A stretch of 64,000 bases of DNA from Vicinamibacteria bacterium (GCA_963668695.2 CAXXLQ010000004.1:3648001-3712000); one strand, 5' to 3'; counted from the first letter of the stretch, positions 301 through 62,770 are shown. Program-made: numbers and translations. Notes: a model not told the origin generated them from the letters alone.

Positions 301-618
301 GCCCGGGAACCCTGAAGTCATCAACTTCGCGGAAAGAAGGCTCATCAGCGGGACGCAGGGTTCGCCAACGCGCGGGCGATGCCGGCCCCCCACCGGAGAG
401 GACTGGCCGGATGGTGGCGTTCCCTTGCCTGCGGCACCATCATGCCGGCCGGAGGTCGGAGTTCCGCAAGAACACAATCGGATGTCAGCCGACCTTGTGT
501 CTGTCCGGGCTTGCGTCCGTCCAAGCTCCGGATGGCCCAACTGGCCGACGGGCCGGCCCAGCAACCGGATGGCTTGCGGAAAGGCCATCATGCCTTACTT
601 CCGTACGGAGATCCCGCC

Positions 619-870
619 GTGGCCATCACGTTGACACTTACCCCCAACGGGCAGATCACCCTGCGCAAGGAAGTGCGCGAACACCTGGGAACGAGGCAGG
701 GCGACAAGGTGGACGTGGACCTGCTGCCGGACGGGCAGGTCCTGCTCCGGGCGAAGCCCCGAAAGCCGATCTCGAGCGTTTTCGGCATGTTGGCGGAACC
801 GGGAACGCGCCGGCGCTCCATTGAGGAACTGAACGAGGCTGCGGCCGCGGGATGGGCGCGTGAGGAGTGA
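619..870 (+). CDS. AbrB/MazE/SpoVT-type antitoxin
   Basis: GTG start after GGAG; LTPNGQITLRKEVREHLG...GDKVDV swapped-hairpin motif; GTGA overlap with a PIN gene. Confidence 0.85.
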   Translation: MAITLTLTPNGQITLRKEVREHLGTRQGDKVDVDLLPDGQVLLRAKPRKPISSVFGMLAEPGTRRRSIEELNEAAAAGWAREE

Positions 871-956
871 AGATCACTGCCGATACCAACCTCCTGCTGC
901 GCGCGACCGTGCAGGACGACCCGGCGCAGGCCCGCCTCGCAGAGGCTCTGGCGTGA
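867..956 (+). pseudogene. vapC: Truncated VapC/PIN toxin (29 aa)
   Basis: MKITADTNLLLRATVQDDPAQARLAEALA*: a typical PIN N-terminus (DTN) followed by an early stop. No PIN continuation is visible. Confidence 0.8.
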
Positions 957-1033
957 ACTGCCCGGTGGGGTAGATGCCGAGAGGTGCACTATCCCGGCAC
1001 TGGGAAGTACGCCGCCTCGCCCCGCTGCGCGGG

Positions 1034-1165
1034 GCGGTGCCGGGCCCCACCGGGAGAACTGCCCAGAGGTCGGCGTTCCAAGCCGTCCCCGCGATTCTCC
1101 TCAAACAGCGATGCGCGGTTTCGCTGGGCTTCGCCCAGCGGTGCCGGTCTGAAGACCGGCGTTCC
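1034..1165 (+). repeat. Two REP-like hairpins (GCCGGTCTGAAGACCGGCGTTCC family); the first carries a micro-insertion
   Basis: GCGGTGCCGG...GTCGGCGTTCC with CCCCACCGGGAGAACTG at 1045-1061; an intact GCCGGTCTGAAGACCGGCGTTCC ends at ~1165. Confidence 0.75.
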
Positions 1166-1309
1166 CGTACCTGCGTCCCGTGCACCCGGTCGGCGATGGG
1201 CCCGCCCGCTGCGCTGCGCGCCGCGGTGCCGGTGTGAACACTGGTGTTCCCTTCACGGATACGATGGGAAGACCCAACCACCACCCCGCCACTCACGAGG
1301 AAAGAAGTC

Positions 1310-3316
1310 ATGCGTCTCGCTCGCCGCCACCCGTTCACCTCCGCGCTGGCCGCCGCGCTGCTCACCGGGGTCGCGGCCGCCCCCGCCGCGGGACAGCCCG
1401 CCGTACTGGAGTCCTTCCGTGCCCAGATCGCGCTGAAGTCGGCAGGCAGCCCCCGAATCTCGCCCGAGGGCAGGTTGATCGCGTATTCGGTGACCACGAC
1501 GGAATGGGAGGCCAACCGGTTCGACCGGGAGATCTGGCTGGCTCCACCGGACGGCGAGCCCTTCCAGCTCACCCGCACCGAAGCCGGGAGCAGCACCGGG
1601 CACCGCTGGTCTCCGGACGGGTCCCGCCTCGGCTTCCTCGCGGACCGCGGTGACGGCGAGCAGATCTACCTCATCCCCCCGGAGGGCGGCGAGGCCGAGC
1701 GGCTCACTTCGCACGACGGCGGCATCAGGTCGTTCCGCTTTTCGCCCGACGGTGGCCAGATCGCGTTCGCGGCCACCGACCCCGCTCCCGACGACTTCGA
1801 GGGGCGCGAGGAAAGCTACGGCGACTACGCCGTCGAAGACGCGGACTTCCGCATGTCCCACCTCTGGGTGACCGAGGTGCGAGCGGGAGCCGAGCCCCGC
1901 CGCCTGACCGGGGGAGACGGCTTCACGGTCGGATCGTTCGATTGGTCGCCGGACGGTCGCGAGATCGCGTTCGACCACACGCCCACGCCCCAGGTCAACT
2001 CGTCTCGACAGGCGGACATCTCGGTCGTCGAGGTGGCCACGGGAACGGTTCGGACGCTGGTCGCGGATCCCGCCCGCGAGCGCGGACCCATGTGGTCGCC
2101 GGACGGTGCGCGCATCCTCTTCACCACCTCGGCGGACGCGAACCCTTACTACGGAAACACCGAACTCGCGGTCATCCCGGCAGCAGGCGGCGAATCCCGC
2201 GTTCTGACCGCCGGTTTCGACGAAAACCCGTCCCCGCTGGCGTGGAACGACGCCGGCGTCTTCTTCGTCGCTTCGCAGCGCACCGCGCGCCACCTGTTCG
2301 TGCTGGACCCCGAATCGGGCGAAGTGACCCTCGAGTTGGACACCCCCGAGATGATCATGGCGGCGGACGTCTCGAGCGACGGCTCCACGCTGGCGATCCA
2401 GGGCGAGGACCGCACCACCGTCGCCGAGATCTACCGCAAGCCGCGCGGCGCCGGCGCGCCGGAGCGGGTCACCGACATGACCGCCCAGGTCGCCGGCTGG
2501 GGTGATCTGGGCAGCCGTGAAGTGGTGCGGTGGGAGAGCGAGGACGGCGCCGAGATCGAGGGGGTGCTCATGAAACCTCCCGGCTACGACCCCGGCCGCA
2601 CCTACCCGCTGATGGTGGTCATCCACGGAGGGCCGACCGGCACCTCCAGGCCGCAACTGGTCGGCGGCTACGTCTACCCCGTCCTCGAATGGCTGAAGAA
2701 GGGGGCCGTCGTGATGATGCCCAACTACCGCGGCTCGGCGGGCTACGGCGCCGAGTTCCGCGCGCTCAACGTGCGCAACCTCGGCGTCGGCGACGCGTGG
2801 GACGTTCTCTCCGGGGTCGAGGCCCTGGTGGAGCGGGGCGTCGCGGATCCGACCCGCGTCGCGGCGATGGGCTGGAGCCAGGGCGGCTACATCTCCGCCT
2901 TCCTCACCACCAGCAGCGACCGCTTCCGCGCGATCTCGGTGGGCGCCGGCATCTCCAACTGGATGACCTACTACGTGAACACCGACATCCACGCCTTCAC
3001 CCGCGAGTACCTGAAGGCGACCCCCTGGGACGACCCCGAGATCTACGCCAAGACCTCACCCATGACCTACATCAAGCAGGCCAGCACCCCGACGCTGATC
3101 CAGCATGGCGAGTTCGACGCCCGCGTCCCGACACCCAACGCCTACGAGCTGTACCAGGGACTCCAGGATGTCGGGGCCGAAACCCAGCTCATCATCTACA
3201 AGGGCTTCGGCCACGGGATCACGAAGCCGCGCGAGCGGCTCGCCGCGATGGTGCACAACTGGGAGTGGTTCGCCCGCCACATCTGGGGGGAAGCGGTCGA
3301 TCCCACCAGCGAGTGA
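1310..3316 (+). CDS. S9 family prolyl oligopeptidase/dipeptidyl aminopeptidase, secreted
   Basis: Signal peptide, PD40 (WSPDG) propeller repeats, IHGGP, GWSQGG nucleophile, D..VP and GHG triad residues. ATG 1310 follows an AGGA ribosome-binding site. Confidence 0.93.
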   Translation: MRLARRHPFTSALAAALLTGVAAAPAAGQPAVLESFRAQIALKSAGSPRISPEGRLIAYSVTTTEWEANRFDREIWLAPPDGEPFQLTRTEAGSSTGHRWSPDGSRLGFLADRGDGEQIYLIPPEGGEAERLTSHDGGIRSFRFSPDGGQIAFAATDPAPDDFEGREESYGDYAVEDADFRMSHLWVTEVRAGAEPRRLTGGDGFTVGSFDWSPDGREIAFDHTPTPQVNSSRQADISVVEVATGTVRTLVADPARERGPMWSPDGARILFTTSADANPYYGNTELAVIPAAGGESRVLTAGFDENPSPLAWNDAGVFFVASQRTARHLFVLDPESGEVTLELDTPEMIMAADVSSDGSTLAIQGEDRTTVAEIYRKPRGAGAPERVTDMTAQVAGWGDLGSREVVRWESEDGAEIEGVLMKPPGYDPGRTYPLMVVIHGGPTGTSRPQLVGGYVYPVLEWLKKGAVVMMPNYRGSAGYGAEFRALNVRNLGVGDAWDVLSGVEALVERGVADPTRVAAMGWSQGGYISAFLTTSSDRFRAISVGAGISNWMTYYVNTDIHAFTREYLKATPWDDPEIYAKTSPMTYIKQASTPTLIQHGEFDARVPTPNAYELYQGLQDVGAETQLIIYKGFGHGITKPRERLAAMVHNWEWFARHIWGEAVDPTSE

Positions 3317-3384
3317 GCGCGGCGCACTTCTAGCCGTCCCCGCGCTTTCTTCCGGTCGCGGTGGGCGTTTCGCCCCCTGTGGGG

Positions 3385-3431
3385 GCGATGCCGGTCTGAA
3401 GGCCCGCACCGGGAGAACTGGCCGGCGCTCC
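3385..3431 (+). repeat. REP-like hairpin interrupted by a 19-bp micro-insertion
   Basis: GATGCCGGTCTGAAGG[CCCGCACCGGGAGAACTGG]CCGGCGCTCC. Confidence 0.85.
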
Positions 3432-3451
3432 GGGCCCATACTTGGCGACGC

Positions 3452-5032: not shown

Positions 5033-5065
5033 CGGGGCGGTTAACAGGGCGGTTAACAGGGCGGT
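5032..5065. repeat. 12-bp tandem repeat (ACAGGGCGGTTA, about 3 units)
   Basis: gacggggcggttaacagggcggttaacagggcggta. Confidence 0.8.
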
Positions 5066-5077
5066 ACCATCCTCGGG

Positions 5078-5944
5078 ATGTCCCGAGGCGGCCTGCGCGC
5101 GGGCGCCGGACTGGCCGCGCTCGCTTTCCTGAACCTTTCAGGGTGCGGCGAGGGCCAGCAGAACGAAGGTCCGCGCCCCCTGGTGGTGGCAGCCGACGTG
5201 GGCTTCGCCCCGCACGCGATGATGGCGCCGAACGGCGAGCTGGAAGGCTTCAACGTGGATCTCGCGCGGGAGATCGCGGCCCGGCTCGGCCGGCCGGGCT
5301 TCGAGATCGTCGACTCCGAGTGGTCGTCCATCTTCTCGGGGCTCTACGCGAAGAAGTTCGAGTTCGTGATCGCCCCCACCACGATCACCGAGGGGCGGGC
5401 CCGGCGCGTGCTGCTCACCGAGGGCTATCTGGACACCGACCCGGTCTTTCTCCGCCGCAACGATGACCCCGAGCTGACCGACCTCGCCCAGCTCCAGGGA
5501 CAGTCGATCGCGGTGAACAACGGCTCGGCCTACGACCTCTGGGCGACCGACAACTACGAAGCGCTCGGCTTCGAGGTGCTGCGCTACGGAAAGAACGCGG
5601 ACGCGGTGCAGGCGGTGCTTTCGGGGCGGGCGTTCGCCAACCTGGTGGGCGAGTCGGTCGCCATGTGGGCCATCCGCCAGAACGCCGGGGTGCGGGCCGA
5701 CTACCGCATCCGGGCCGAAACCGCCTTCGCCGCAGCGTTCCGGAACGACGACGTCGCGTTCCGCAACGAGGTCGAGACCATTCTCGAGTGCATGAAGGCG
5801 GACGGGACGATCGCGCGGATCCACCGCGAATGGCTGGGTACCGATCCGGCGCCCGGCTCGGCCGCGGTGACTCCCTATCCCGGATTCGGGCCGCCGGGGC
5901 TCCCCGGATTCATGGCGACCCCGGACCGGAAGCCCTGCGAGTAG
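5078..5944 (+). CDS. Polar amino-acid ABC transporter substrate-binding lipoprotein
   Basis: Lipobox LSGC; GFNVDLA and TITEGR motifs of SBP family 3. Confidence 0.9.
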   Translation: MSRGGLRAGAGLAALAFLNLSGCGEGQQNEGPRPLVVAADVGFAPHAMMAPNGELEGFNVDLAREIAARLGRPGFEIVDSEWSSIFSGLYAKKFEFVIAPTTITEGRARRVLLTEGYLDTDPVFLRRNDDPELTDLAQLQGQSIAVNNGSAYDLWATDNYEALGFEVLRYGKNADAVQAVLSGRAFANLVGESVAMWAIRQNAGVRADYRIRAETAFAAAFRNDDVAFRNEVETILECMKADGTIARIHREWLGTDPAPGSAAVTPYPGFGPPGLPGFMATPDRKPCE

Positions 5945-5950
5945 CACCTC

Positions 5951-6724: not shown

Positions 6725-6939
6725 CAACCTGTGATGAAACCCGAGCGGCCCAGTTCTCCCGGTGGGGGCTCGGCCGGCGATCCATCCCGGCTGAACCACT
6801 GCGCTTCGCTCCGTTCTGCGTTGCGTTTCGGTCGCAATACACCCGGGCCAGTTCTCCCGGTGGGGGCTCCTCCCTCACGCGCCTTGTCAGCCGGGCGCCT
6901 CGCCGGCCTCGGCGCTCACCCGGGTTCCACCACAGGCTG
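6725..6939 (-). mobile_element. ~180-bp structured MITE-like element, copy A, with 2 micro-insertions
   Basis: Ends CAACCTGTGATGAAACCC / GGGTTCCACCACAGGCTG; flanks TTAA / TTGA; micro-insertions at 6750-6768 and 6848-6866. For all copies, the strand given is the G-U-compatible folding strand. Confidence 0.9.
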
Positions 6940-6956
6940 TTGAGGCGCTTCCAGCG

Positions 6957-7625: not shown

Positions 7626-7631
7626 GCCGCC

Positions 7632-8666: not shown

Positions 8667-9100
8667 GGCCCACGCTCCGATTCACGAATCGCGCCCTCCG
8701 CGATCTCAAGCGTCTCGACGCACCAACCCACGCGCGGATCCTGGCGGGGATCAAGCAATACGTGGACTCTCCTCCTGCTAACAGCCTGTGGTGAAACCCA
8801 AGCGGCGTTCGAGCGGCGATCCATCCCGTCTGAACCACGCCGCTTTGCGGCGCTCTGCGTTGCGTTTCGGTCGAAATACACCCGGTATTCCTCCCTCACG
8901 CGCCTTGTCAGCCGGGCGCCTCGCCGCTCTCGGCGCTCACCCGGGTTCCACCACAGGCTGCTAAGGCAGTTCGGCTCAAGGGCGCCGGCGACACCTTACG
9001 TATCCGGATCGGCGACTGGCGAGTGTTGTTCGTTTTTCAGACGGTGGAGAACGTCGTCGAGATCCAACGGGTAGTGCATCGCTCTCAGGCGTATCGGTGA
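8663..9100 (+). pseudogene. relE: RelE/StbE toxin disrupted by MITE copy B
   Basis: Removing 8782-8964 restores ...RALRDLKRLDAP...PPAKAVRLKGAGDTLRIRIGDWRVLF...VVHRSQAYR*. The insertion introduces an in-frame TGA at 8792-8794. Confidence 0.9.
8782..8960 (-). mobile_element. MITE copy B (179-bp reference copy, exact CTAA target duplication)
   Basis: CTAA at 8778-8781 and 8961-8964; terminal inverted repeats CAGCCTGTGGTG...CACCACAGGCTG; no micro-insertion. Confidence 0.95.
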
Positions 9101-9133
9101 GCCGTGTGACCGGAGCTCGAGTTCCCAGGAGTC

Positions 9134-16394: not shown

Positions 16395-16681
16395 CAGCCG
16401 GTGGACAAAGTCACGCGGCATTCCCGAGCCAGAAGAGATGGGGGTCGGGTGCCCCCGTCCCCCGTCTCTTCCGCTCCGGGGTCTCCGCGGTGCTGGCGCC
16501 CCGCTCCGGAAGCGGCCGGCGATACATCCCGGCTGAAACGCGCCGCTTCGCGGCACTCGTCGTTGCGCTTCGGTCGAAATACACCCGGGCCAGTTCTCCC
16601 GGTGGGGGCTCCTCCCTCGCGCGCCTTGTCAGCCGGGCGCCTCGCCAGCCTCGGTGCTCACGCGACTTTGCCCACCGGCTG
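16395..16681 (-). mobile_element. MITE copy C with a ~90-bp extra insert and 1 micro-insertion
   Basis: Ends CAGCCGGTGGACAAAGTC / GACTTTGCCCACCGGCTG; flanks TTAG / CTAG; extra hairpin sequence at ~16424-16512; micro-insertion at 16590-16608. Confidence 0.88.
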
Positions 16682-16722
16682 CTAGCAGCAGCCCGGTGGG
16701 CGGCCGCTATCCTGTTTACGCG

Positions 16723-27292: not shown

Positions 27293-28240
27293 ATGACGAT
27301 CCAGCCGCCCCGCTGGTCGGACGCGGTGGCGGCCGCGGAGCGGCTCCGGCGGGTGTTTCCGCCGAGTCCGCTGCTCCGCGCCACCCCGGACCTGGCGGCA
27401 GAACTCCTGCTCAAGGCGGACACGCTCTTGCCCTCGGGGTCGTTCAAGGTGCGCGGGATCTGGGACGCGGTATCGCAACTGAGCCCGGAGGCGGTGGCGC
27501 CCGGACTCTCCACCGTGAGCGCCGGGAACACGGCGCTCGCACTCGCCTGGGCGGCGCGCCGGCGGGGGGTCACCGCCCGCTCGCTGCTGCCCGAGACGGT
27601 GCCCACCGCGAAAGTCGAAGCGTTCCGCGCCGCCGGGGGCGAACCGCGCCTCGTCCCGGTGCCCGAGCTCTTCCGGTTCCTGAAAGAGAGCCTGTGGGAA
27701 CGGGAGCCCTACGCCTTCGTCCACCCGTGGATCGACCCTGCGGTGCACCGGGGGCACGCGAGCCTTGCGGTCGAACTCCTGGAGGCGGCGCCCGACGTCG
27801 AATCGGTGTTCATTCCGGTCGGTGGAGGCGGGCTGCTCACCGGAGTGGCCGGCGCGCTCAAGGATCGCCGACCGGAGATCCGCATCTTCGCGGTCGAGCC
27901 CGCCGGCTGCGCCGCCCTCCATCACAGCCTGGAGGCCGGCCGCGCGGTGGCGGCCCCCTGCGAAACGGTGTGCGACGGGGCGGCGGTCCCCTACCTCACC
28001 GAGGAGCTCTACCCCGCCCTCGCGGGCCTCGTGGACCGGACCGTGCTGGTGCCGGACGAGGAGACCCTCGCCACCTCGCGGGACCTCCTTCTCAACCAGA
28101 AAATCCTCACGGAACCCTCCGGCGCGCTCGCGACCGCCGGCGCGCGGATGGTGCCGGCCGGAGAGCGCGGTCTGAGCGTGGCCATCCTCACCGGCGCCAG
28201 CGTCGGCGCGGCGGGGATCCAGCGGCTGCTGGATCTCTGA
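27293..28240 (+). CDS. PLP-dependent serine/threonine dehydratase family protein
   Basis: SGSFKVRG (PLP lysine), SAGN, PVGGGGL, EPSGA. Confidence 0.9.
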   Translation: MTIQPPRWSDAVAAAERLRRVFPPSPLLRATPDLAAELLLKADTLLPSGSFKVRGIWDAVSQLSPEAVAPGLSTVSAGNTALALAWAARRRGVTARSLLPETVPTAKVEAFRAAGGEPRLVPVPELFRFLKESLWEREPYAFVHPWIDPAVHRGHASLAVELLEAAPDVESVFIPVGGGGLLTGVAGALKDRRPEIRIFAVEPAGCAALHHSLEAGRAVAAPCETVCDGAAVPYLTEELYPALAGLVDRTVLVPDEETLATSRDLLLNQKILTEPSGALATAGARMVPAGERGLSVAILTGASVGAAGIQRLLDL

Positions 28241-30280: not shown

Positions 30281-31135
30281 ATGTCCAGCAAACCCAGCCC
30301 CGCCCTGGAACTAAAGGGTGCGCTTGCTAGACTGAGGAATGAAGTCTCATCCCTCGATGCCGCCAGCCGAGGGCAGATCAGCGACCCAGCTCGCCGCGCC
30401 GCGGAAAAGGAACTGGCCGGCGTCATCGCCCGCGCCGAGAAGCTTCAACGACGATTGGATCCGACTGCTCACCCAGCCTTCGTACTCGACCCGGGGAAGC
30501 CGACCGTTGTCGCCCGTCTGATCGCACTTGTTCTGCTGGCACAGCTTAGAGTCCCTCTAGCAGACACGCAGAAGTCTTACGGCTCTGGGATTTACGCGCT
30601 CTACTATCGTGGGCCCTTCGTGCATTACGCGCCGATCAGCGGATCCGAGACACCGATCTACGTCGGCAAAGCAGAACCGGAGAGGCCAACCGCTGAGACC
30701 CCGGCGAGTCAAGGCATCCGCTTGTCTCGACGCCTGCAGGACCATAAGGGAACCATTCAGGCCGTCGAGTCCGAAGGCACGCTGTTGCTCGCCGATTTCG
30801 AACAGCGATCCCTTGTAATTCAGAGCGGTTGGCAATCCGCAGCCGAGGAGTACCTCATCGGGCTCTTCGGCCCAATCTGGAACAAGGAAACCAAGATCTG
30901 TTATGGCTTCGGCAAGCACGGTGATGCCGCGGAGACGCGGGCCAACAAGCGTTCCCCGTGGGACACTCTTCATCCTGGGCGCCGTTGGGCACATCATGCC
31001 AAGCTCTCGGACGCGCACCCCCAACACGAGATCGTCGAGGGCCTCCGGCAACACTTCCACAATACTCGCGTTTATCAGAACCTAGCCGAGATCGTGGACA
31101 TCTTCATGGGCGACTTCCGACAGTTCAAGCCTTAA
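30281..31135 (+). CDS. Eco29kI-family GIY-YIG restriction endonuclease
   Basis: GIYALYY...PIYVGKA, RL..H, E.YLI..F.PIWN, GFGKH, SPWDTLHPGRRWA. Confidence 0.9.
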   Translation: MSSKPSPALELKGALARLRNEVSSLDAASRGQISDPARRAAEKELAGVIARAEKLQRRLDPTAHPAFVLDPGKPTVVARLIALVLLAQLRVPLADTQKSYGSGIYALYYRGPFVHYAPISGSETPIYVGKAEPERPTAETPASQGIRLSRRLQDHKGTIQAVESEGTLLLADFEQRSLVIQSGWQSAAEEYLIGLFGPIWNKETKICYGFGKHGDAAETRANKRSPWDTLHPGRRWAHHAKLSDAHPQHEIVEGLRQHFHNTRVYQNLAEIVDIFMGDFRQFKP

Positions 31136-31314
31136 CAGCCTGTGGCAAAACCCACGCGGCGTTCGCCCGGCGATGCATCCCCGCTGAACCACTCCGCTTC
31201 GCTCCGTTCTGCGTTGCGTTTCGGTCGCAATACACTCGGTATTCCTCCCTCACGCGCCTTGTCAGCCGGGCGCCTCACCAGGCTCGGCGCTCACGTGGGT
31301 TTCACCACAGGCTG
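31136..31314 (-). mobile_element. MITE copy E (exact TTAA duplication)
   Basis: TTAA at 31132-31135 (includes the REase stop) and 31315-31318; 179 bp; no micro-insertion. Confidence 0.93.
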
Positions 31315-31325
31315 TTAAGCGCAAA

Positions 31326-31668
31326 CGGCTGCGCCGCCCTCCATCACAGCCTGGAGGCCGGCCGCGCGGTGGCGGCCCCCTGCGAAACGGTGTGCGACGG
31401 GGCGGCGGTCCCCTACCTCACCGAGGAGCTCTACCCCGCCCTCGCGGGCCTCGTGGACCGGACCGTGCTGGTGCCGGACGAAGAGACCCTCGCCACCTCA
31501 CGGGACCTCCTTCTCAGCCAGAAAATCCTCACGGAACCCTCCGGCGCGCTGGCGACCGCCGGGGCCCGGATGGTGCCGGCCGGAGAGCGCGGTCTGAGCG
31601 TGGCCATCCTCACCGGCGCCAGCGTCGGCGCGGCGGGAATCCAGCGACTGCTGGATCTCTGAACGCCG
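31326..31668 (+). pseudogene. Duplicated 3' third of the dehydratase gene (right direct repeat)
   Basis: GCAALHHSLEAG...GIQRLLDL* with no start. Confidence 0.92.
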
Positions 31669-33442: not shown

Positions 33443-33510
33443 GAGTTTCGCGGCCTCCGGCCGCGATGCTGGCCAGTTCTCCCGGTGGGGGCCTGAAGAC
33501 CGGCGCTCCT
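33443..33510 (+). repeat. Extended REP with a 19-bp micro-insertion (near-identical to 41092-41159)
   Basis: GAGTTTCGCGGCCT(C/G)CGGCCGCGATGCTGG[CCAGTTCTCCCGGTGGGGG]CCTGAAGACCGGCGCTCCT. Confidence 0.88.
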
Positions 33511-37206: not shown

Positions 37207-37229
37207 CAACGAAGCAACTAACAGCGAAG

Positions 37230-37417
37230 CAACCTGTGAACAAAGTCACGCGGCGTTCGACCGGCGATGCATCCCGGCTGAATCGCGACGCTCTCAGTTC
37301 CGATTCGATCGGAATACACCGGGTATTCCTCCCGAATCGCGCCTTGTCAGCCGGGCGCCTCACCGCCAGTTCTCCCGGTGGGGGCCTCGGCGCTCACGTC
37401 ACTTTGTCCACCGGCTG
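37230..37417 (-). mobile_element. MITE copy F with 1 micro-insertion
   Basis: Ends CAACCTGTGAACAAAGTC / CACTTTGTCCACCGGCTG; micro-insertion at 37366-37384; a 15-bp tandem duplication (TAACARCGAAGCAAC) at its left edge. Confidence 0.88.
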
Positions 37418-37440
37418 CTACCGCCGGAAAGGAATGCAAC

Positions 37441-40207: not shown

Positions 40208-40238
40208 CGCCGGCGGTCGCCCGTTCGCGCCGCGTTAA

Positions 40239-40413
40239 CAGCCGGTGGTGGAACCCGGGTGAGCGCCGAGAGCGGGGAGGCGCCCGGCTGACAAGGCGCG
40301 TGAGGGAGGAATACCGGGTGTATTTGGACCGAAACGCAACGCCGAGCGCCGCAAAGCGGCGCGGTTCAGCCGGGATGCATCGCCGCTTGAACGCCGCCTG
40401 GGTTTCACCACAG
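40239..40413 (+). mobile_element. MITE copy G, right end clipped
   Basis: TTAA then CAGCCGGTGGTGGAACCC...TTTCACCACAG; the last ~4 bp are replaced by a gene fragment. Confidence 0.9.
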
Positions 40414-41043
40414 ATCAGCCCGTCGTTCGGGGTCGCCCTCACGCAGACGCTCCAGATGCCCGGGATCTCGGGACTTCCGAACAACTGTCTGCTCCTGGAG
40501 TTCGATAGTCAGCGGCCCGAGGAAATCGGCGAAACCGTCGAGGGAGCCCGGATCGCGGTGGACACCGGGTTCAACGCCCTCATCCTGCGTTCCACGAGGC
40601 ACCGCTTCGGCTACCGCTCGTCCATCCATCTCTGGCTGACCGAGGACAACTTCGACAACGCGCCGCTGATGTTGCTGCTCGCCTACATCATCGTGGGACA
40701 CCCGGAATGGAAGCGGGCGGAAATCCAGCTCTTCGACTGCTCCGACCTCAGTTCCACCGAGCATCAGACCCACGACCTCTCGCGACTGCTCTCGCAAGAG
40801 CGCCTGCCCATCTCGGCGCAGAACCGGACGACGATCGGCTACCAGAACGGCGAGGAGCTCGAACGCGAGGTGGCGAGGAGGTCCTCGAGAGCCGACCTGG
40901 TGATCACCGGTATCCCGCCCGCAACCCTGCGAAGCGATGCGGCGGCGGCGGCGCTACGGCGCTACGAGTCCACCAACGACGTGCTCTTCGTCAGCGGGGT
41001 CGAGCGAATCTCCCTCGCCGACAGCGGAGCGCGCGGAAAGTAG
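40411..41043 (+). pseudogene. C-terminal fragment of an amino-acid permease/cation-chloride cotransporter-like protein
   Basis: QMPGISGLPNN..LLEF, IHLWL, NAPLMLLLAYIIVGHPEWK.AEI, RLPIS..N; no start and no TM domain. Confidence 0.7.
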
Positions 41044-41091: not shown

Positions 41092-41159
41092 GAGTTTCGC
41101 GGCCTGCGGCCGCGATGCTGGCCAGTTCTCCCGGTGGGGGCCTGAAGACCGGCGCTCCT
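41092..41159 (+). repeat. Extended REP with a 19-bp micro-insertion
   Basis: One mismatch relative to 33443-33510; micro-insertion at 41122-41140. Confidence 0.88.
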
Positions 41160-43638: not shown

Positions 43639-44275
43639 CGGCCCGTGAACAAAGTCAGGCGGCCCAGTCCTCCCGGAGGAGGCCCCGGCGTTCACGCGCC
43701 CGGCTGACAAGGCGCGTGAGGGAGGAATACCTGGTGTATTTCGACCGAAACGCAACGATGAGCGGCGCGAAGCGACGCGGTGAACAGCCGGTGGTGGAAC
43801 CCACGTGAGCGCCGAGGTTGGCCAGTTCTCCCGGTGGGGGCGAGGCCCAGCTCTCCCGGTGGGGCCAGTCCTCCCGGTGGGGGCCCGGCTGACAAGGCGC
43901 GTGAGGGAGGAATACCGCGTGTATTCCGACCGAAACGCAACGATCGAGCGGCGCGAAGCGACGCGGTGAACAGCCGGTGGTGGAACCCACGTGAGCGCCG
44001 AGGTTGGCCAGTTCTCCCGGTGGGGGCGAGGCCCAGTTCTCCCGGTGGGGCCAGTCCTCCCGGTGGGGGCCCGGCTGACAAGGCGCGTGAGGGAGGAATA
44101 CCGCGTGTATTCCGACCGAAACGCAACGATGAGCGGCGCGAAGCGACGCGGTTCAGCCGGGATGGATCGCCGGCCGAGCCCCCACCGGGAGAACTGGGCC
44201 GCGTGGGTTTCATCACCGGTTGTTTGGCCGGGATGGATCGCCGGCCGAACGCCGCCTGGGTTTCACCACCGGCTG
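43639..44275 (+). mobile_element. MITE locus H: outer copy interrupted by a partly tandem-duplicated inner copy, 8 micro-insertions
   Basis: Outer copy 43639-43781 plus 44226-44275; inner copy 43785-44222 with a 186-bp duplication (units at 43780 and 43966). Confidence 0.88.
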
Positions 44276-48759: not shown

Positions 48760-48992
48760 TAGCTCGTGGATGAAATGGCGTGAGCGCCGAGGTCGGTGAG
48801 GCGCCCGGCTGACAAGGCGCGCGAGGGAGGAGCCCCCACCGGGAGCACTGGCCCCGGCGTATTCCGACCGCAGCGGAACGATGAACGGAGCGAAGCGCCA
48901 GTTCTCCCGGTGGGGGGGCGGTTCAGCCGGAATGCATCGCCGGCCGAACGCCCACCGGGAGAACTGGGCCGCGTCATTTCATTCACGGGCTG
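48760..48992 (+). mobile_element. MITE copy J with 3 micro-insertions
   Basis: Ends TAGCTCGTGGATGAAATG / CATTTCATTCACGGGCTG; micro-insertions at 48833-48851, 48898-48916 and 48951-48967. Confidence 0.9.
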
Positions 48993-48997
48993 CTCCT

Positions 48998-49303
48998 CTA
49001 TCCCTTCAGCTCCGCCGCGTCGTCAAGGTTCACGTGCTTCACGACCCGGTAGAGCGACATCACGATCGCCAGCGCGACCGCCGCTTCGCAGGCGGCGATG
49101 ACGATCACCAGCAGCGCGAAGACCTGACCACCGAGCGCCCCCTCGACGAACCGCGAGAAGGCGACCAGATTGATGTTCGCGGAGTTGAAGATCAACTCGA
49201 TGGACATCAAAACGTTGACGGCGTTTCGCCGGGTGAGGACCCCGAAGACGCCGAGCGAGAAGAGCGCCGCCGAGATGTAGAGGTAGTGCTCGAGAGGGAT
49301 CAC
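48998..49303 (-). CDS. nuoK: NADH-quinone oxidoreductase subunit K
   Basis: RRNAVNVLMSIEL, AACEAAVALA. Confidence 0.95.
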   Translation of the reverse strand: MIPLEHYLYISAALFSLGVFGVLTRRNAVNVLMSIELIFNSANINLVAFSRFVEGALGGQVFALLVIVIAACEAAVALAIVMSLYRVVKHVNLDDAAELKG

Positions 49304-49307
49304 TTAG

Positions 49308-49495
49308 CGGTCCGTGGACGGGGTCAGGTGAGCGCCGAGACCGGTGAGGCCCAGTTCTCCCGGTGGGGGTCCGGCTGACAAGGCGCGATTTGGGAGGAAT
49401 ACCGAGCGTATTCCGACCGAATCGGAACGAAGAGCGTAGCGGTTCAGCCGGGATGCATCGCCGGTCGAACGCCGGCTGACCCCGTTCACGGGCCG
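49308..49495 (+). mobile_element. MITE copy K with 1 micro-insertion; contains the nuoJ stop codon
   Basis: Ends CGGTCCGTGGACGGGGTCAG / CTGACCCCGTTCACGGGCCG; micro-insertion at 49351-49369. Confidence 0.9.
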
Positions 49496-52935: not shown

Positions 52936-52987
52936 GGGACCCGCTTCGGGAGTTTCACTGCCCTGTCGGGCAGCGATGCCGGCCTAG

Positions 52988-53202
52988 CAGCCTGTGGTGA
53001 AACCCAGGCGGCGTTCGAGCGGCGATGCATCCCGGCTGAACCGCCCCCCCACCGGGAGAACTGGCGCTTTGCGGCGCTCTGCGTTGCGTTTCGGTCGAAA
53101 TACACCAGGTATTCCTCCCTCACGCGCCTTGTCAGCCGGACCCCCACCGGGAGAACTGGGCCTCGCCGCTCTCGGCGCTCACCCGGGTTCCACCACAGGC
53201 TG
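52988..53202 (-). mobile_element. MITE copy L, inserted in the loop of a REP, with 2 micro-insertions
   Basis: GATGCCGGC-CTAG[element]CTAA-AGGCCGGCGTTCC; micro-insertions at 53046-53064 and 53141-53159. Confidence 0.92.
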
Positions 53203-53245
53203 CTAAAGGCCGGCGTTCCTACTTCGCTCATTGCGCCTGCGCCAC

Positions 53246-55732: not shown

Positions 55733-55793
55733 ATCGCGCCTGACGCCGGCTGCCTTTCGCACCGGCGGTTTCGGCCTGTCTATACTGGTAGAA

Positions 55794-56009
55794 CAGCCTA
55801 TGGTGAAACCCAGACGGCGTTCGGCCAGCGATCCATCCCGGCTGAACCGCGTCGCTTCGCTCCGCTCATCGTTGCGTTTCGGTCGCAATACACTCGGTAT
55901 TCCTCCCTCACGCGCCTTGTCAGCCGGACCCCCACCGGGAGAACTGGGCCTCGCCCCCACCGGGAGAACTGGCCGGCCTCGGCGCTCACCCGGGTTCCAC
56001 CACAGGCTG
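55794..56009 (-). mobile_element. MITE copy M with 2 micro-insertions
   Basis: Ends CAGCCTATGGTGAAACCC / GGGTTCCACCACAGGCTG-TTAA; micro-insertions at 55929-55947 and 55954-55972. Confidence 0.92.
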
Positions 56010-56017
56010 TTAAAGCG

Positions 56018-56368: not shown

Positions 56369-56611
56369 GTTCCCGTCGTCCGAACGTTCGGTCCCGCTGA
56401 GCCGAGCGTCGCCGGAACGGGCCCACGCATCGCGCGCGGCGCCCCGTACCGCGCGGCCCCGGCCAGTTCTCCTGACGATCGGCGGCCTCCGCGTTGAAAA
56501 AGTAAACGCGGGGCGGTTCTCCGGGCGCATCGCAAGCCCGGCGACCCGTCAGAACTCCGTGCCGAAAGGCCCGATCTGACGCGCCCTCTGCTGGCGATAC
56601 CCCCACTCACC

Positions 56612-57937: not shown

Positions 57938-59397
57938 ATCGGGCTCTGGCAATCGGCGCCGGCAGCTTCCTCGCCGGGGTAGGGATCGCCGCTCTTTTGG
58001 TGTTCGGGCTTGGCGGCTGGGAGTGGCCGCCCCCCTTCCTGGCGGTCCAGGACGCCGGCGAAGGTGCCGGATCGGACGACCCGCCCGCAAAGGCTGAACG
58101 GGAGATCCTCTACTGGAGGGCCCCCATGGACCCGAACTTCATTTCGGACCGGCCGGGCAAATCCTCCATGGGCATGGATCTCGTCCCGGTGTACGCGGAC
58201 GAAGCAGAGAGCCAGCCGGAGGGCACGGTGCGCATCGACCCGACCTTCGTACAACGCATCGGGGTCCGGACGGCGGCCGTCGAGCGTCGCGACATCGCGC
58301 AGACCATCCACACCGTCGGCACCATTGCCCACAACGACAAGCAGATCGCCTGGGTGAACACCAAGATCGACGGCTGGATCGAGAACATTGCGGTGAACTA
58401 TCTCGGGGAGACGGTCGAGAAGGGCCAGGTTCTCTTCGACATCTACAGCCCGCAACTGGTCACCACCCAGACCGACTACCTCAACGCGGTGCGCTATGCC
58501 AAGCGGCTCGACGCCTCGCAGTACCCCGACGTCGCCGCCAGGGCGCAGTCGCTGGTCGCATCGGCACGCGCCCGGCTCCGCCACTGGGACATCACAGACG
58601 AACAGATCGAAACGCTCGAGCGGGAGGAGACGCCGCGGCGCACGCTCTCGGTGGTCTCCCCGGTAGCCGGGGTGGTCGTCCAAAAGATGGACGCGGCGCT
58701 GGACGGCATGTACGTCCGGCCGGGAATGAATCTCTACAAGCTGGCGGACCTGACCACCATCTGGGTGGACGTCGAGATCTTCGAGCACCAGGTGGAAGCC
58801 ATGCGGATCGGCCAGCGGGCCGAGGTGGAGCTGCCCTACGTGCCGGGACGGCCCTACACGGGATTCGTCCGCTACCTCTACCCGCATTTCAACCAGGAAA
58901 CCCGCACGATGACGGTGTCCATCGAGCTCGCGAATCCGGACCTGACCTTGCGCGCGGGGATGTACGCGAACGTCACCTTCGATGTCCCGGTGGCCGGGAA
59001 CGCCCTCGCCGTGCCCGAAGAAGCGGTGATCCGGAGCGGCACCCGGAACCTCGTCGTCCTCGAGCTTTCACCGGGCCTGTTTCGCGTAGCGGAGGTCACG
59101 CTCGGAGCGGGAGCCGACGGGTTCCGGGAGGTGCGCGAGGGGATCTCCGAGGGAGACAAGGTCGTGGTCTCGGCGCAGTTCCTGATCGATTCCGAGAGCA
59201 ACCTCACCCAGGCGATCAGGGCTCTTACGCGGGAATCCGAAGCGCGGGAATCCGAAGCGCGGGAATCCGAAGCGCGGGAATCCGAAGCGCCGGAACCCGA
59301 AGCGCCGGAACCCGAAGCGCGGGAATCCGAAGCGCGGGAATCCGAAGCGCCGGAACCCGAAGCGCCAACCCACGACCTGTCGCATCAGCACCACTGA
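57934..59397 (+). CDS. cusB: CusB-type periplasmic adaptor of heavy-metal RND efflux
   Basis: YWRAPMDP...[25 protein letters not shown]; repeat tail ending in HQHH. Confidence 0.9.
59230..59364 (+). repeat. In-frame 15-bp VNTR, 9 units ([10 protein letters not shown])
   Basis: CGGGAATCCGAAGCG x4, CCGGAACCCGAAGCG x2, then x2 and x1. Confidence 0.92.
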
Positions 59398-59403
59398 CCG
59401 CTC

Positions 59404-62400
59404 ATGGAAGAAACACCCCGCGGCGCACCGCCGACGCTGGACGGGCGAGAACCGCGCCAACCGGACGCGAAGCAACCGATGCTCGCAAGAACCATCGAAT
59501 GGTCGCTTCGGAACCGCCTGTTCGTCCTCGTGGCCACCATCTTCCTCGCGGTGGGCGGATTCCAGGCGCTCCGCGCAACGCCCCTCGACGCATTGCCCGA
59601 TCTGTCGGATGTCCAGGTGATCATCTTCACCGACTATCCGGGACAGGCGCCGCAGGTGGTGGAGGACCAGGTCACCTACCCGATCACCACCCAGATGCTC
59701 GCGGTTCCCTACGCCCAGGTGGTGCGCGGCTATTCGTTCTTCGGGTTTTCGTTCGTCTATGTGATTTTCGAGGACGGCACCGACCTCTACTGGGCGCGGA
59801 GCCGCGTTCTCGAGTACCTCAACTACGTCAGCGGGAGGCTGCCGGAGGGAGTCACTCCCACGCTCGGTCCCGACGCCAGCGGCGTTGGGTGGGCGTACAT
59901 GTACGCGCTGCGCTCCGAGGACAAGGACCTCGCCGAACTGCGGTCGCTCCAGGACTGGTTCCTCAAGTACGAACTCACCGCGGTGCCGGGAGTCTCCGAG
60001 GTAGCGAGCGTCGGCGGGTTCGTGCGGCAGTACCAGATCACCGTGGATCCGAACCGGCTACGCGCCTACAACATATCCCTCTCGCGAATTCGCGACGCCG
60101 TCCGGCGCAGTAACAGCGACGTGGGTGGAGGGGTGTTCGAGACGGCGGAGACCGAGTTCATGGTGCGGGGGGAGGGGTACATCACGGGGCTCGACGACGT
60201 CCGCAGCATCGCACTCGGGGTGGACGCATCCGGTACCCCGGTCACGGTGCAGGACGTTGCGACCGTGCAGTTCGGCCCGGAGATCCGGCGCGGCCTTGCC
60301 GAGCTGAACGGCGAGGGGGAAGTGGTCGGCGCCATCGTGGTCGTGCGGTCCGGCGAAAACGTGCACGAGGTGGTAACCCGGGTCAAGGCGCGGCTCGACG
60401 AACTGCGGCCCGGACTCCCGGCAGGAGTCGAGATCGTCCCGGTCTATGACCGGACGGTCCTGATCGAGAATTCCGTCGCCACCCTCCAGCGGAAGCTGCT
60501 CGAAGAAATGGCGATCGTCGCGCTGGTGTGCGCGGTGTTCCTGCTGCACCTGCGCTCCGCACTGGTCGCGGTCCTCACCTTGCCGCTCGCGGTGCTCATG
60601 GCCTTCATCGTGATGTACGTGCAGGGAGTCGGCGCCAACATCATGTCGCTCGGCGGCATCGCGATCGCCATCGGCGCCATGGTCGACGCGGCAATCGTGA
60701 TCGTCGAGAACGCCCACCGCCACCTCGAGCGCGACCGGGGCCGGATTCCCCACTGGCGGATCATCGCCCGCGCGTCCACCGAGGTGGGGCCGACTCTGTT
60801 CTTCGCGCTGCTGGTGATCACGATCTCCTTCGCGCCCATCTTCGCGCTGGAAGCACAGGAAGGCCGGCTCTTCCGGCCGCTCGCGTTCACCAAGACGTAC
60901 GCGATGGCCGCCGCCGCGCTGCTCTCCGTGACCGTGGTGCCGGTCCTCGCCGGGTACTGGATCCGCGGGCGCATCCGGCCGGCTCGCGACAATCCGATCA
61001 CCCGTGCCCTCATGGCGCTCTACCGGCCCCTGCTCCGGCGGGTCCTGGCGTGGCGCTGGGCCGTGCTCGCGCTGACCATCGCGGCGGCCGGCGTTACGGC
61101 GGTTCCCGCGTTGCGACTCGGCTCGGAGTTCATGCCGCCGCTCTGGGAAGGCGACCTGCTCTACATGCCGACCACCCTGCCCGGGGTTTCCATCACCAAG
61201 GCCCGCGAGATCCTCCAGGAGACGGACCAGATTCTCACGACCTTCCCCGAAGTGGAGCTGGTCTTCGGCAAGGTGGGCCGGGCCGAGACCGCGACGGATC
61301 CGGCGCCCCTGAGCATGATCGAAACGACGATCCTGCTGAAGCCGGAGGACGAGTGGCGGTCCGGGATGACCCCGGACCGGCTGATCGCGGAAATGGACGA
61401 CGCCATCCGCTTTCCGGGCCTGACGAACGCGTGGACCATGCCCATCAAGACCCGGATCGACATGTTGTCCACCGGCATCAAGACCCCGGTGGGGATCAAG
61501 CTCTCCGGCCCCGACCTCGCGGTCCTCGAAGAACTCGGCAGCCGGGTCGAAGCCGTGGTACGCGACGTACCCGGAACCCGGTCGGCCTACTCGGAGCGCG
61601 TCATGGGCGGCAACTACCTGAACTTCAAGATCCGGCGGGACGCCATCGCGCGCTACGGGCTGACGGTCGGGGACGTCCAGGACGTCATCCAGTCGGCGAT
61701 CGGCGGAATGAACATCACGACTACGGTGGAGGGGCTCGAGCGCTACCCCGTGAACCTCCGCTACCGCCGCGACCTTCGCGACAGCCCTGCCGATTTCGGA
61801 GACATCCTGGTCCAGACGCCGACGAAACAGCAGATTCCGCTTGCGTTTTTGGCGGACATGTCGTTCGTCAAGGGACCACCCGTCATCAAGAGCGAACAGT
61901 CGCGCCCGAATGCCTGGATCTATGTGGACATCGAGGACGTGGACATCGGGACCTACGTCGAGAACGCCCAGGCGGCGGTCGCCGCAGGCGTGGACATTCC
62001 CACCGGCTACAGCCTGCGGTGGAGCGGGCAATACGAGTTCATGCTGCGCGCCCGCAAACGCATGGAGATCATGATCCCGCTCACCCTGCTGCTGATCCTG
62101 CTGACCATCCAGATGAGCACCCGGTCGTTGCCCAGGACCCTGATCGTGGTTTCGGCGGTGCCGCTCTCGTTGATCGGCACCTTCTGGCTCCTCTACGCGC
62201 TCGACTACAACCTGAGCATCGCGGTCGGGGTGGGGATCATCGCGCTCGCCGGACTGAGCGCCGAGACCGGGGTCGTGATGCTGCTGTATCTGGACCGGGC
62301 CTGCGAAGAGGCCGGAACGGAGGGGCGCCTGACCAACCGCGCCGAACTGAGCGCGGCGGTTTTCGATGGAGCCGTCCGCCGGGTGCGGCCGGTCGCCATG

Positions 62401-62610
62401 CTGACCGCCACCACCGCGCTGGGCCTCCTGCCCATCATGTGGAGCACCGGCGCCGGATCCGACGTGATGAAGCGGATCGCCGCCCCCATGGTGGGCGGGG
62501 TGGTCACCGCGGCGCTGGTGGCGCTGGTGGTGTTTCCCGCGATCTACTTCATCTGGCGGGGATGGGGGTTGCCGCGGGCGGAAGATGGCGCCCTGGCGCC
62601 CGTGGAGTAA
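59404..62610 (+). CDS. cusA: CusA/SilA Cu(I)/Ag(I) RND efflux pump
   Basis: LDALPDLSDVQVII, YWARSRVLEYL, EFMPPL.EGDLLYMP, RIDMLSTG, MKRIAAPMVGG. Confidence 0.95.
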   Translation: MEETPRGAPPTLDGREPRQPDAKQPMLARTIEWSLRNRLFVLVATIFLAVGGFQALRATPLDALPDLSDVQVIIFTDYPGQAPQVVEDQVTYPITTQMLAVPYAQVVRGYSFFGFSFVYVIFEDGTDLYWARSRVLEYLNYVSGRLPEGVTPTLGPDASGVGWAYMYALRSEDKDLAELRSLQDWFLKYELTAVPGVSEVASVGGFVRQYQITVDPNRLRAYNISLSRIRDAVRRSNSDVGGGVFETAETEFMVRGEGYITGLDDVRSIALGVDASGTPVTVQDVATVQFGPEIRRGLAELNGEGEVVGAIVVVRSGENVHEVVTRVKARLDELRPGLPAGVEIVPVYDRTVLIENSVATLQRKLLEEMAIVALVCAVFLLHLRSALVAVLTLPLAVLMAFIVMYVQGVGANIMSLGGIAIAIGAMVDAAIVIVENAHRHLERDRGRIPHWRIIARASTEVGPTLFFALLVITISFAPIFALEAQEGRLFRPLAFTKTYAMAAAALLSVTVVPVLAGYWIRGRIRPARDNPITRALMALYRPLLRRVLAWRWAVLALTIAAAGVTAVPALRLGSEFMPPLWEGDLLYMPTTLPGVSITKAREILQETDQILTTFPEVELVFGKVGRAETATDPAPLSMIETTILLKPEDEWRSGMTPDRLIAEMDDAIRFPGLTNAWTMPIKTRIDMLSTGIKTPVGIKLSGPDLAVLEELGSRVEAVVRDVPGTRSAYSERVMGGNYLNFKIRRDAIARYGLTVGDVQDVIQSAIGGMNITTTVEGLERYPVNLRYRRDLRDSPADFGDILVQTPTKQQIPLAFLADMSFVKGPPVIKSEQSRPNAWIYVDIEDVDIGTYVENAQAAVAAGVDIPTGYSLRWSGQYEFMLRARKRMEIMIPLTLLLILLTIQMSTRSLPRTLIVVSAVPLSLIGTFWLLYALDYNLSIAVGVGIIALAGLSAETGVVMLLYLDRACEEAGTEGRLTNRAELSAAVFDGAVRRVRPVAMLTATTALGLLPIMWSTGAGSDVMKRIAAPMVGGVVTAALVALVVFPAIYFIWRGWGLPRAEDGALAPVE

Positions 62611-62627
62611 CGGCTCGGTGCCGTTAA

Positions 62628-62770
62628 CAGCCGGTGGTGAAACCCAGGCGGCGTTCGAGCGGCGATGCATCCCGGCTGAACCGCGCCGCTTTGCGGCGCT
62701 CGGCGTTGCGTTTCGGTCGAAATACACTCGGGCCAGTTCTCGTCACTCACCCGGGTTCCACCACAGGCTG
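62628..62770 (-). mobile_element. MITE copy N, internally deleted at a micro-insertion
   Basis: Flanks TTAA / TTGA; the core stops at ACTCGGG-CCAGTTCTC and jumps to CTCACCCGGGTTCC. Confidence 0.88.

Follow-up and report, generated by a model that had tools for sequence, protein, structure and literature searches.

A dispersed 18-nucleotide unit in Vicinamibacteria genomes as a probable very small mobile DNA element

What places one and the same 18-nucleotide sequence, time after time, inside the hairpin repeats of a bacterial genome? The question is raised by a 64,000-nucleotide stretch of DNA from a Vicinamibacteria bacterium (assembly GCA_963668695.2, CAXXLQ010000004.1:3648001-3712000), referred to here as the window, in which the 18-mer CCAGTTCTCCCGGTGGGG or its reverse complement was matched 23 times at up to two mismatches (dinucleotide shuffles: mean 0.01, maximum 1). 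An earlier note on this DNA had read the copies as insertions into existing repeats, due to a process that is specific both in sequence and in site. That reading is supported here by alleles at orthologous and haplotig loci, by site combinatorics, by a tree of the host repeat and by linkage, which point to neither a passive nor an artefactual origin. The 18-mer, hereafter the unit, is probably a very small, non-autonomous mobile DNA element of the small dispersed repeat (SDR) kind, mobilised in trans as a cassette of about 20 nt without inverted ends or target duplication, and it is among the smallest mobile DNA elements seen. New copies arise, and orthologous repeats can differ in their units from one species, or one strain haplotype, to another.

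The genome to which the window belongs (G000; 4.10 Mb in 4 contigs, completeness 92%) contained 1,288 exact copies of the unit, 278 with one mismatch, 65 with two and 48 with three; a reversed-sequence control gave 0 matches in G000 at up to two mismatches. A single variant, T to C at position 6 (T6->C), accounted for 156 of the 278 one-mismatch copies, and both this variant and the canonical form are met repeatedly, at many sites and across many species. The most frequent 16-mers of the genome are parts of the unit, with 1,325 occurrences versus 531 for the best word from the core of a miniature inverted-repeat transposable element (MITE). The unit occurs about once per 2.6 kb and makes up approximately 0.7% of G000, and the non-redundant part of contig C4 held 1,487 units at up to two mismatches. 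No obvious strand bias was seen along C4 in 10 bins, a comparison that is uninformative as orientation follows the host repeat. Among copies with at most one mismatch, 1,488 of 1,565 lie in repeat contexts for which empty paralogous sites, with the flanks joined, were found. Crude coding sequence (CDS) calls, which cover 81% of the genome, held 37 of the 1,288 exact copies, and 40 of the 45 copies within them (up to one mismatch) sit in context clusters of at least five members formed by MITEs or repetitive extragenic palindromes (REPs); these calls are therefore probably spurious open reading frames (ORFs) over repeats. The proposed contrast between repeats and coding DNA was thus found, and the statement in the earlier note that no full copy lies inside a protein gene is essentially confirmed.

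Is the unit real? It might in principle be an adapter, a primer or a product of assembly. Of 24 other genomes in this family (Vicinamibacteria metagenome-assembled genomes, MAGs), which come from different assemblies, 20 carried the exact unit, as did 15 of 15 genomes of the genus at 5 to 631 copies each; it was found in 0 of 16 genomes from two sister families, the family and sister-family tallies including G033. Unit-bearing records were Vicinamibacteria or 'Ca. Marinacidobacterium' MAGs from several projects, and four single matches in unrelated taxa are at the chance level estimated for 596 Gb. Furthermore, the 20-mer was found in 88 stretches of other metagenome assemblies. The window region was recovered in run contigs from at least four studies, sponge metagenomes and RNA libraries among them, with repeat bins 100-400 times deeper than unique sequence; run coverage was taken from Logan contigs, which break at every MITE, and parts without cover are uninformative. 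As far as contigs go, occurrence across independent assemblies and studies rules out an adapter or assembly artefact, an explanation whose probability is vanishingly small and in whose favour nothing was found.

Where does the unit sit? A MITE of approximately 190 nt with terminal inverted repeats, present in about 650 copies, holds 1,017 of the 1,565 units at five hot sites (S1 to S5), and most of the remainder are in several subfamilies of REP-like hairpins. Each of the five sites has its own fixed orientation, which corrects the free orientation previously proposed. Strict flank clustering gave 109 contexts, including 67 singletons. Of 105 contexts, 87 have G directly behind the unit, 73 have C in the next position and 75-77 have G at each of the two positions in front of it; the commonest left tetramers were CCGG (22), CGGC (15) and GCGG (10). 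The working cassette is about 20 nt, (G)CCAGTTCTCCCGGTGGGGGC, and replaces 1-3 mostly A/T-containing target bases for a net gain of 18 or 19 nt. In REPs, CCGG-T-C becomes CCGG-[unit]GC-C (net +19); at MITE site S2, CCCGG-TAT-TCC becomes CCCGG-G[unit]GC-TCC; at S1, GGC-GT-TCG becomes GGC-[unit]GC-TCG; and in other genera AT, AA or GA becomes [unit]GC. The net insertion of 18 or 19 nt claimed earlier is borne out by the junction classes that dominate the empty-site alignments, (0,0) with 264,469 and (0,1) with 38,295 high-scoring segment pairs, which are paralogue alignments and not events. No target-site duplication was seen in allelic and orthologous filled/empty pairs, 1-3 bases being replaced instead. 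As had been noted, terminal inverted repeats are absent from the unit, whose ends, CCAGTT... and ...GGTGGGGGC, are not reverse complements. With its flanks the unit folds no better than shuffles (z 0.10 and 0.63), and an intact REP does fold (z -2.65).

The unit was also followed beyond G000. Related MITEs and other REPs hold the exact unit in four genomes of other genera (G018, G019, G020 and G016), where it occupies sites unused in G000. G018 also has units inserted into other units at CCCGG^TG, with as many as three levels of nesting and the expected GC-GGG-GC tails. The canonical and T6->C variants are both found in low-copy congeners, mostly at CGCCGG^ in REPs.

Do units come and go at given sites? 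Synteny of G000 with its relatives G001 (approximately 94% identity), G004 and G008 is intact. In the orthologous MITE at window 6729-6954, S1 and S2 are both filled in G000 and both empty in G001. The MITE at 48760-49000 has one site with a unit in G001 and G004 only, an S2 that is occupied in G000 and G001 and empty in G008, and two more sites that are occupied in all. At the REPs at 3404 and 41122 the unit lies inverted in the opposite arm in G001 or G008; the loop is unchanged, and the switch is therefore not a simple inversion. The window's units and their hosts are listed below; all positions given in the earlier note were reproduced within one nucleotide, the degenerate and truncated copies included, and its empty MITE copies and intact REP are present. 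The 23 matches at up to two mismatches begin at the start positions shown for individual units, apart from the degenerate, decayed and truncated copies.

386..404, minus strand: degenerate copy of 19 nt carrying an indel, within a REP-like hairpin; read directly
1045..1062, minus strand: unit with 1 mismatch in REP-B, GGAACGCCGACCTCTGG[unit]; from the mismatch search
1143..1165, plus strand: intact REP hairpin GGTGCCGGTCTGAAGACCGGCGTTCC, an empty target (the fold with z -2.65)
3404..3421, minus strand: unit in REP right arm; left arm in the G001 orthologue, by orthologue comparison
6729..6954, plus strand: MITE with units at S1 (6750-6767) and S2 (6848-6865), both missing from the orthologous MITE of G001
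8779..8966, plus strand: empty MITE, the reference copy, with terminal inverted repeats TAACAGCCTGTGGTGAAACCC and GGGTTCCACCACAGGCTGCTAA
16590..16607, plus strand: unit at MITE site S2
31133..31320, plus strand: empty MITE
33473..33490, plus strand: unit in REP left arm, GCGATGCTGG[unit]GCCTGAAGACCGGCG
37366..37383, plus strand: unit in MITE at the minor site CACCG^GCCTCGG
40236..40420, minus strand: empty MITE, in the orientation opposite to the reference
41122..41139, plus strand: unit in REP left arm; right arm, inverted, in the G001 and G008 orthologues
43664..43681, plus strand: decayed unit, 3 mismatches
43822..43882, plus strand: one MITE with three units, at S4 (43822) and then as a head-to-tail dimer at S3 (43847, 43865)
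44008..44068, plus strand: tandem MITE copy with the identical three-unit arrangement, S4 and S3 dimer (44008, 44033, 44051)
44180..44197, minus strand: unit at MITE site S1
48760..49000, minus strand: MITE with units at S2 (48834-48851), S5 (48898-48915) and S1 (48950-48967); orthologues vary
49351..49368, plus strand: unit at MITE site S3, a monomer, followed by GT
53047..53064, minus strand: unit at MITE site S5
53142..53159, minus strand: unit at MITE site S3
55930..55972, minus strand: one MITE with units at S3 (55930) and S4 (55955), 7 nt between them
62733..62741, plus strand: truncated unit, its first 9 nt and then a deletion, at S2 of a MITE with an internal deletion

Head-to-tail dimers, described earlier from one site, occur as 54 spacing-0 pairs on C4. 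The G+C content of the window is 65-71%, and Rfam gave no match in it at the gathering score.

Approximately 300 kb of G000 is doubled at 97.6-99.7% identity (C1, C3 and C4:9,354-148,038 against C4:3,783,325-3,913,787), which probably represents strain haplotigs or an unresolved assembly overlap and explains the 9.3% 'contamination'. Haplotig pairs with 279,967 aligned bases, carrying 89 and 94 units, yielded four loci with clean alleles in flanks that are otherwise identical: filled versus empty at S3 (twice), filled versus empty at S2 in two adjacent MITEs, and monomer versus dimer at S3. A fifth candidate, at C1:44541, was not confirmed on closer comparison.

Such differences might arise with no dedicated mobility at all, if a few ancient insertions had been multiplied by transposition of the MITE and REPs and then shuffled by ectopic gene conversion or loop repair. 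The concentration of units at five sites of one MITE agrees with this, as does the S3 dimer, whose second unit is always T6->C and which forms a subfamily of about 140 copies passively amplified with the MITE. The MITE itself seems to have been active recently, with most window copies missing from orthologous loci; divergence from the G001 orthologue is greater in the MITE at 6729 than in its flanks; a joint change of state in two neighbouring tandem MITEs of one haplotig pair looks like conversion; and the junction bases travel with the unit. The pattern over many copies tells otherwise. Among 357 near-full-length MITEs, 30 of the 32 five-site presence/absence patterns occur, and all 10 pairs of sites show all four combinations. 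On a MITE backbone tree built without the junction columns, unit state required nearly as many changes as when shuffled (shuffled means in brackets): 105 (115) at S1, 111 (118) at S2, 91 (101) at S3, 90 (98) at S4 and 30 (37) at S5. Ten held-out backbone single-nucleotide polymorphisms (SNPs), serving as a control, needed 3-56 changes versus 59-111 when shuffled; being so strongly tree-structured, they indicate that the tree has power and that unit state is almost free of it. The change from TAT to G[unit]GC pointed out earlier is real and fully coupled to insertion in these 357 copies: the filled state is linked to the 1-3 junction bases at an r2 of 0.94-1.0 (S1, S2), and to polymorphisms 3-7 nt away or further at no more than 0.10. 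Since linkage is lost 3-7 nt from the unit, conversion tracts would need to be about 25 nt long and always exact. Furthermore, the unit occurs in unrelated hosts without flanking homology (several REP subfamilies, the MITE, the unit itself and the longer elements described below), occupies different sites in other genera, and is about 5 times less diverged than its hosts, with a pairwise identity of 0.973 versus 0.868 for the backbones of the MITEs that carry it. Passive multiplication and shuffling is accordingly an unlikely source of the observed distribution.

Could the unit instead be kept in place by selection as a functional site, such as a protein-binding site, an uptake-type signal or a former of RNA stems, its spread reflecting its function? 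Its 18 nt are exactly conserved across five genera, and the density given above would suit a signal. On C4 a plus-strand unit is followed by a minus-strand unit within 4-45 nt in 245 cases (spacings of 31, 38 and 34), versus only 2 divergent pairs, and these convergent pairs give perfect 18-bp stems in MITE transcripts. However, the insertions need a mechanism, and function creates none. Copy numbers among congeners range from 0-8 to 1,288, which is hard to square with an essential site, and units are nearly missing from coding DNA although the unit, read from its sequence, has no stop codon in any frame. DNA uptake sequences, spread over coding and non-coding DNA, differ in this respect, as the CDS counts make plain. 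Selection for a function is on balance an improbable explanation, distinctly more so than passive shuffling.

Longer elements were found that share the ends of the unit. Among partial units on C4, 36 keep the 3' part versus 6 that keep the 5' part, and the former led to a repeat ending in ...GACCCGATCATGRGGGTTTCTCCCGGTGGGG (28 matches in G000 at up to three mismatches), whose partner left end begins CCAGTTGCTGTGAAAATGCAG (21 matches in G000); many of the 36 are the right ends of this repeat or internally deleted units. Thirteen complete elements of this type, termed P, were present on C4, with lengths of 148-378 nt and a mode of approximately 227 nt; sizes between 18 and 148 nt were not common. 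They occupy unit sites (S1, S2, REP-A and REP-B), with identical flanks and the same junctions, trailing GC included, and the unit equals the first 6 and last 12 bases of P, with a TT overlap at the join. P is non-coding and holds a REP that often carries a unit. The earlier proposal that the 18-mer might be split around a larger element was partly right, in that elements of 148-378 nt bounded by its first 6 and last 12 bases lie at the same sites. A unit split in the middle around a larger insertion sequence (IS) was rejected, prefix and suffix counts falling smoothly (the split after base 6 emerged through the partial copies), which also argues against the footprint of a known IS suggested before.

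BLAST detected P in every one of the 15 genomes of the genus and in 0 of the 25 other genomes searched; no copy lies in the window. Its right-end pattern gave 0 matches in metagenome contigs, and no autonomous P-like parent was found in G000, the relatives sampled or the metagenome loci, where ORFs beside P-type left ends at two loci encode a permease and unassigned products rather than transposases. P-type left ends pointing outward 80-150 nt from contig ends were observed at metagenome loci L201, L207, L212, L240, L242, L248, L249, L252, L264 and L268, as would be expected of short-read assemblies that break within a multi-copy element beginning at that point. Evidence for a structured RNA was looked for: four P loci gave only a sub-threshold small RNA match in Rfam (21 bits versus 40), RNAalifold on five P copies gave 1 compensatory pair of 59, which leaves such a structure unsupported, and a 10-bp stem near the right end scored a z of only -0.75. 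Either the unit derives from a P-like element of which it keeps only the ends, or P represents a unit with acquired or interrupting DNA; the termini are constant in both cases.

Which enzyme could act on such ends? No TnpB exceeded the cut-off. The reverse transcriptase family PF00078 was matched only in G001 among the five high-copy genomes, with no match in G000, G004, G008 or G018. Y1 HUH transposases (Y1_Tnp) gave no match in G000 (2 candidates scored, at 92% completeness), G004 or G015, and weak partial matches elsewhere, and Y2 (PF04986), the transposase of IS91-type rolling-circle elements, had no match in five genomes, with control genomes equally silent. Cas1 was patchy, being intact in G008 and G018; in G000 two weak adjacent Cas1 fragments lie in one 300-aa frame at C4:3,284,095-3,284,739 (E about 1e-5). 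Reverse transcriptase, TnpB, Cas1 and Y1 were rejected as drivers, none being present across the high-copy genomes. No multi-copy IS was recognised among the 14 long repeats (at least 600 nt) inspected in G000, which were tandem arrays, repeat-protein genes and MITE arrays.

These searches bear on a further explanation, also raised in the earlier note, in which a reverse transcriptase or telomerase-like enzyme adds the unit from an RNA template. The fixed sequence would follow directly from a template, the variable loss of 1-3 target bases and the G-run junctions suggest microhomology, and the excess of 3' over 5' partial copies could be of the same origin, many of the former being accounted for by P or by internal deletion. 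The distribution of PF00078 speaks against it, as do the lack of a master copy in a conserved unique locus among the singletons and the lack of an Rfam family in the window or in P. Templated addition is highly improbable, more so than selection for function.

An IS110-type DEDD gene, in contrast to these candidates, was found in 5 of 5 high-copy genomes. Among 13 contiguous family assemblies it was present in 7 of 7 with at least 45 units, G010 (6 units) had 2 matches, and G019 (36 units), G020 (1 unit) and three unit-free genomes had none. The genomes are kin, and IS110 is also common in the unit-free sister families; the co-occurrence is a lead and not a test. The resident element encodes a DEDD transposase of 428-442 aa, with 1 copy in G000 (C4:482,099-483,880) and at least 7 each in G004 and G008 (loci L142-L149); one G004 copy lies in a REP that already holds a unit. 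The insertion site of the copies examined is GGAGGTC^CGGCG in one type of REP, and in G018 it is GGAGCGCC^. As the source of the unit, which the earlier note had proposed as IS110-like, the resident IS110 was rejected: its ends, TATACC...GAAGGTC, and its REP target differ.

Taken together, the observations favour a mobile cassette. Its insertions have a fixed orientation and fall on G/C-rich short motifs, most often immediately behind CCGG, in REP-like hairpins, in the 190-nt MITE and in the unit itself, with replacement of 1-3 bases. A trans-acting enzyme encoded elsewhere would recognise only the short termini, possibly via a nucleic-acid guide, and the cassette may be copied and pasted through a single-stranded or templated intermediate. 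We infer both the enzyme and the strand-transfer chemistry; the leading candidate, a doubtful one, is an IS110-type DEDD bridge recombinase with a dedicated guide RNA. The fuller proposal, in which copy-and-paste of a 20-nt cassette, set only by end sequences of about 6 and 12 bases, is carried out by a guide-based recombinase (bridge-RNA/IS110-type or other), with P elements as cargo- or guide-carrying relatives, seems less likely still.

Several observations weigh against mobility in trans. No enzyme has been tied to the unit, and G019, with 36 exact units, had no IS110 match. Resident IS110 ends in G000, G004, G008 and G018, TATA(C/A)C...GAAGGTC, are unrelated to those of the unit. The loss of 1-3 target bases is a misfit with the conservative site-specific recombination of IS110-type elements, and a circle-based mechanism must be single-stranded, because an 18-bp duplex cannot circularise. 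The passively amplified S3 dimer and the joint change of two tandem MITEs, both set out above, belong here as well, and gain cannot be told from loss in the data, which are unrooted. P-type right ends were not found in G018, G019, G023 or G016, all of which bear units, and P is therefore not needed for units to exist; P may also be a unit interrupted by another insertion.

How does the unit compare with known small repeats? The SDRs of Elhai et al. 2008 are reportedly near-identical copies that nest in MITEs and in each other and leave no target duplication. The unit, too, inserts into a conserved sequence, into other repeats and into itself, a hallmark of SDRs. The earlier note knew of no described element like the unit; the very small dispersed repeats SDR4, SDR5 and SDR6 of Nostoc punctiforme and relatives (Elhai et al. 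2008, Genome Res 18:1484, as cited in PMC5861425, PMC4390886, PMC2884548 and PMC3116915) are close analogues, being about 20 nt long, highly repeated, thought to be mobile and assigned no known transposase. SDRs are some 20-27 nt with many near-identical dispersed copies, and the unit has 18-20 nt, 1,288 exact copies and the identity given above. The insertion point of SDR5 lies exactly between bases 3 and 4 of the palindrome GCGATCGC (PMC4390886), a likeness in precise insertion into a short palindrome to the unit, which goes after CCGG. On the differing side, SDRs belong to Nostocaceae rather than Acidobacteriota, with an apparently unrelated sequence and lengths of 21-27 nt versus 18-20 nt; the unit, unlike the SDRs as described, replaces 1-3 target bases and has longer counterparts bounded by its halves. 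No publication on the unit was found, nor a paper on 'Marinacidobacterium'; no sequence-level literature search was made.

MITEs, as internal-deletion derivatives of IS elements, resemble the unit in being non-autonomous, in high copy number and in having both termini in common with a longer element (here P). In contrast, the unit has neither terminal inverted repeats nor target-site duplication, no autonomous parent of it was found, and with its 18 nt it falls short of the size of any usual MITE by a factor of about 3-10. Neisseria dRS3/NIME (Neisseria intergenic mosaic elements) and Escherichia coli BIMEs (bacterial interspersed mosaic elements) are mosaic intergenic arrays of modules of approximately 20 nt and longer repeats, as are the arrays described here. 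Their modules have dyad symmetry, and we know of no report of them as cassettes at many positions inside another repeat. REP/REPIN elements with their Y1 HUH transposases (RAYTs) are likewise short, extragenic, hairpin-associated and present in hundreds of copies (PMC3116915). The unit differs in being no palindrome, as its folding scores show, and Y1_Tnp was not matched in G000, G004 and G015; REPs in G000 are targets of the unit and not the unit itself. Palindrome-associated elements of the IS200/IS605 type have subterminal hairpins and Y1, neither of which was found for the unit.

IS110/IS1111 elements resemble the unit in lacking inverted ends and duplications, in fixed orientation and in targeting REP hairpins, and orientation-specific insertion at a short target is indeed what was observed. 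They differ in that the target, which a conservative exchange leaves intact, loses bases at unit sites (TAT to G[unit]GC, GT to [unit]GC, T to [unit]GC), that the ends of the unit do not match the resident IS110, and that no guide RNA for the unit was found. IS621, of the IS110/IS1111 family, is said to recombine by means of a bridge RNA. Mainly a single-stranded circle is excised in IS621, with a copy-and-paste model and donor-arm recognition only, according to the abstract of a 2026 preprint (bioRxiv 10.64898/2026.08.31.748434). A very short donor is thinkable if, as reported there, donor-arm recognition suffices.

Several other features of the repeats and of the genome were recorded. Two independent REP contexts (REP-A'/REP-B; 28 and 25 copies) have CTGG instead of CCGG on the left side of the unit, creating an 8-bp palindrome, CTGGCCAG, at the junction (window 33463-33472, 41112-41121 and 1063-1072); the change could have come about by deamination of a methylated CCGG or in the course of insertion. 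Recent activity of the 190-nt MITE is suggested by its window copies (6729-6954, 16500-16690, 37227-37425, 43690-44270, 48760-49000, 49330-49480, 52985-53205 and 55791-55980), most of which are missing from the orthologous loci of G001, G004 and G008, with gaps of 3-15 nt between flanking alignments, and no autonomous partner of it was seen. Unrelated to the unit, window 104-266 contains 3-4 copies of a repeat of about 32-65 nt with CTAGTAGCAGTAACAC. A 300-nt direct repeat (98% identity, 3.4 kb apart) lies at 27904-28203 and 31326-31625, and at 59198-59381 about 12 units of a 15-nt tandem repeat (CGCGGGAATCCGAAG-type) differ in copy number by 30-48 nt from G001, G004 and G008. Elsewhere on C4, a 23-kb array of approximately 351-nt tandem repeats (2,803,874-2,826,790) and a 2,473-aa open frame of repeated modules of about 110 aa (3,762,095-3,769,115) encode large repeat proteins of a kind known from sponge symbionts.

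What, then, does the unit mean? To our knowledge, the one earlier description of mobile DNA about 20 nt long concerns heterocystous cyanobacteria, with a mechanism that has been open since 2008. The unit adds another case, apparently unrelated to the first, from a family of uncultured acidobacteria with links to sponge metagenomes, and its system offers strain-level filled and empty alleles, sharp edges, a target rule, two heritable variants and longer elements with the same ends. Near-complete genomes with 0 to approximately 1,300 copies make a search for the enzyme practical. If guide-based copying and pasting were true, the unit would be the smallest active mobile DNA known and a natural means of placing a short, constant tag behind CCGG-type motifs of hairpin DNA; should the termini be sufficient by themselves, it would mark a lower size limit for transposable DNA. 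In these bacteria the unit shows repeats remodelling the hairpin-forming elements of intergenic DNA.

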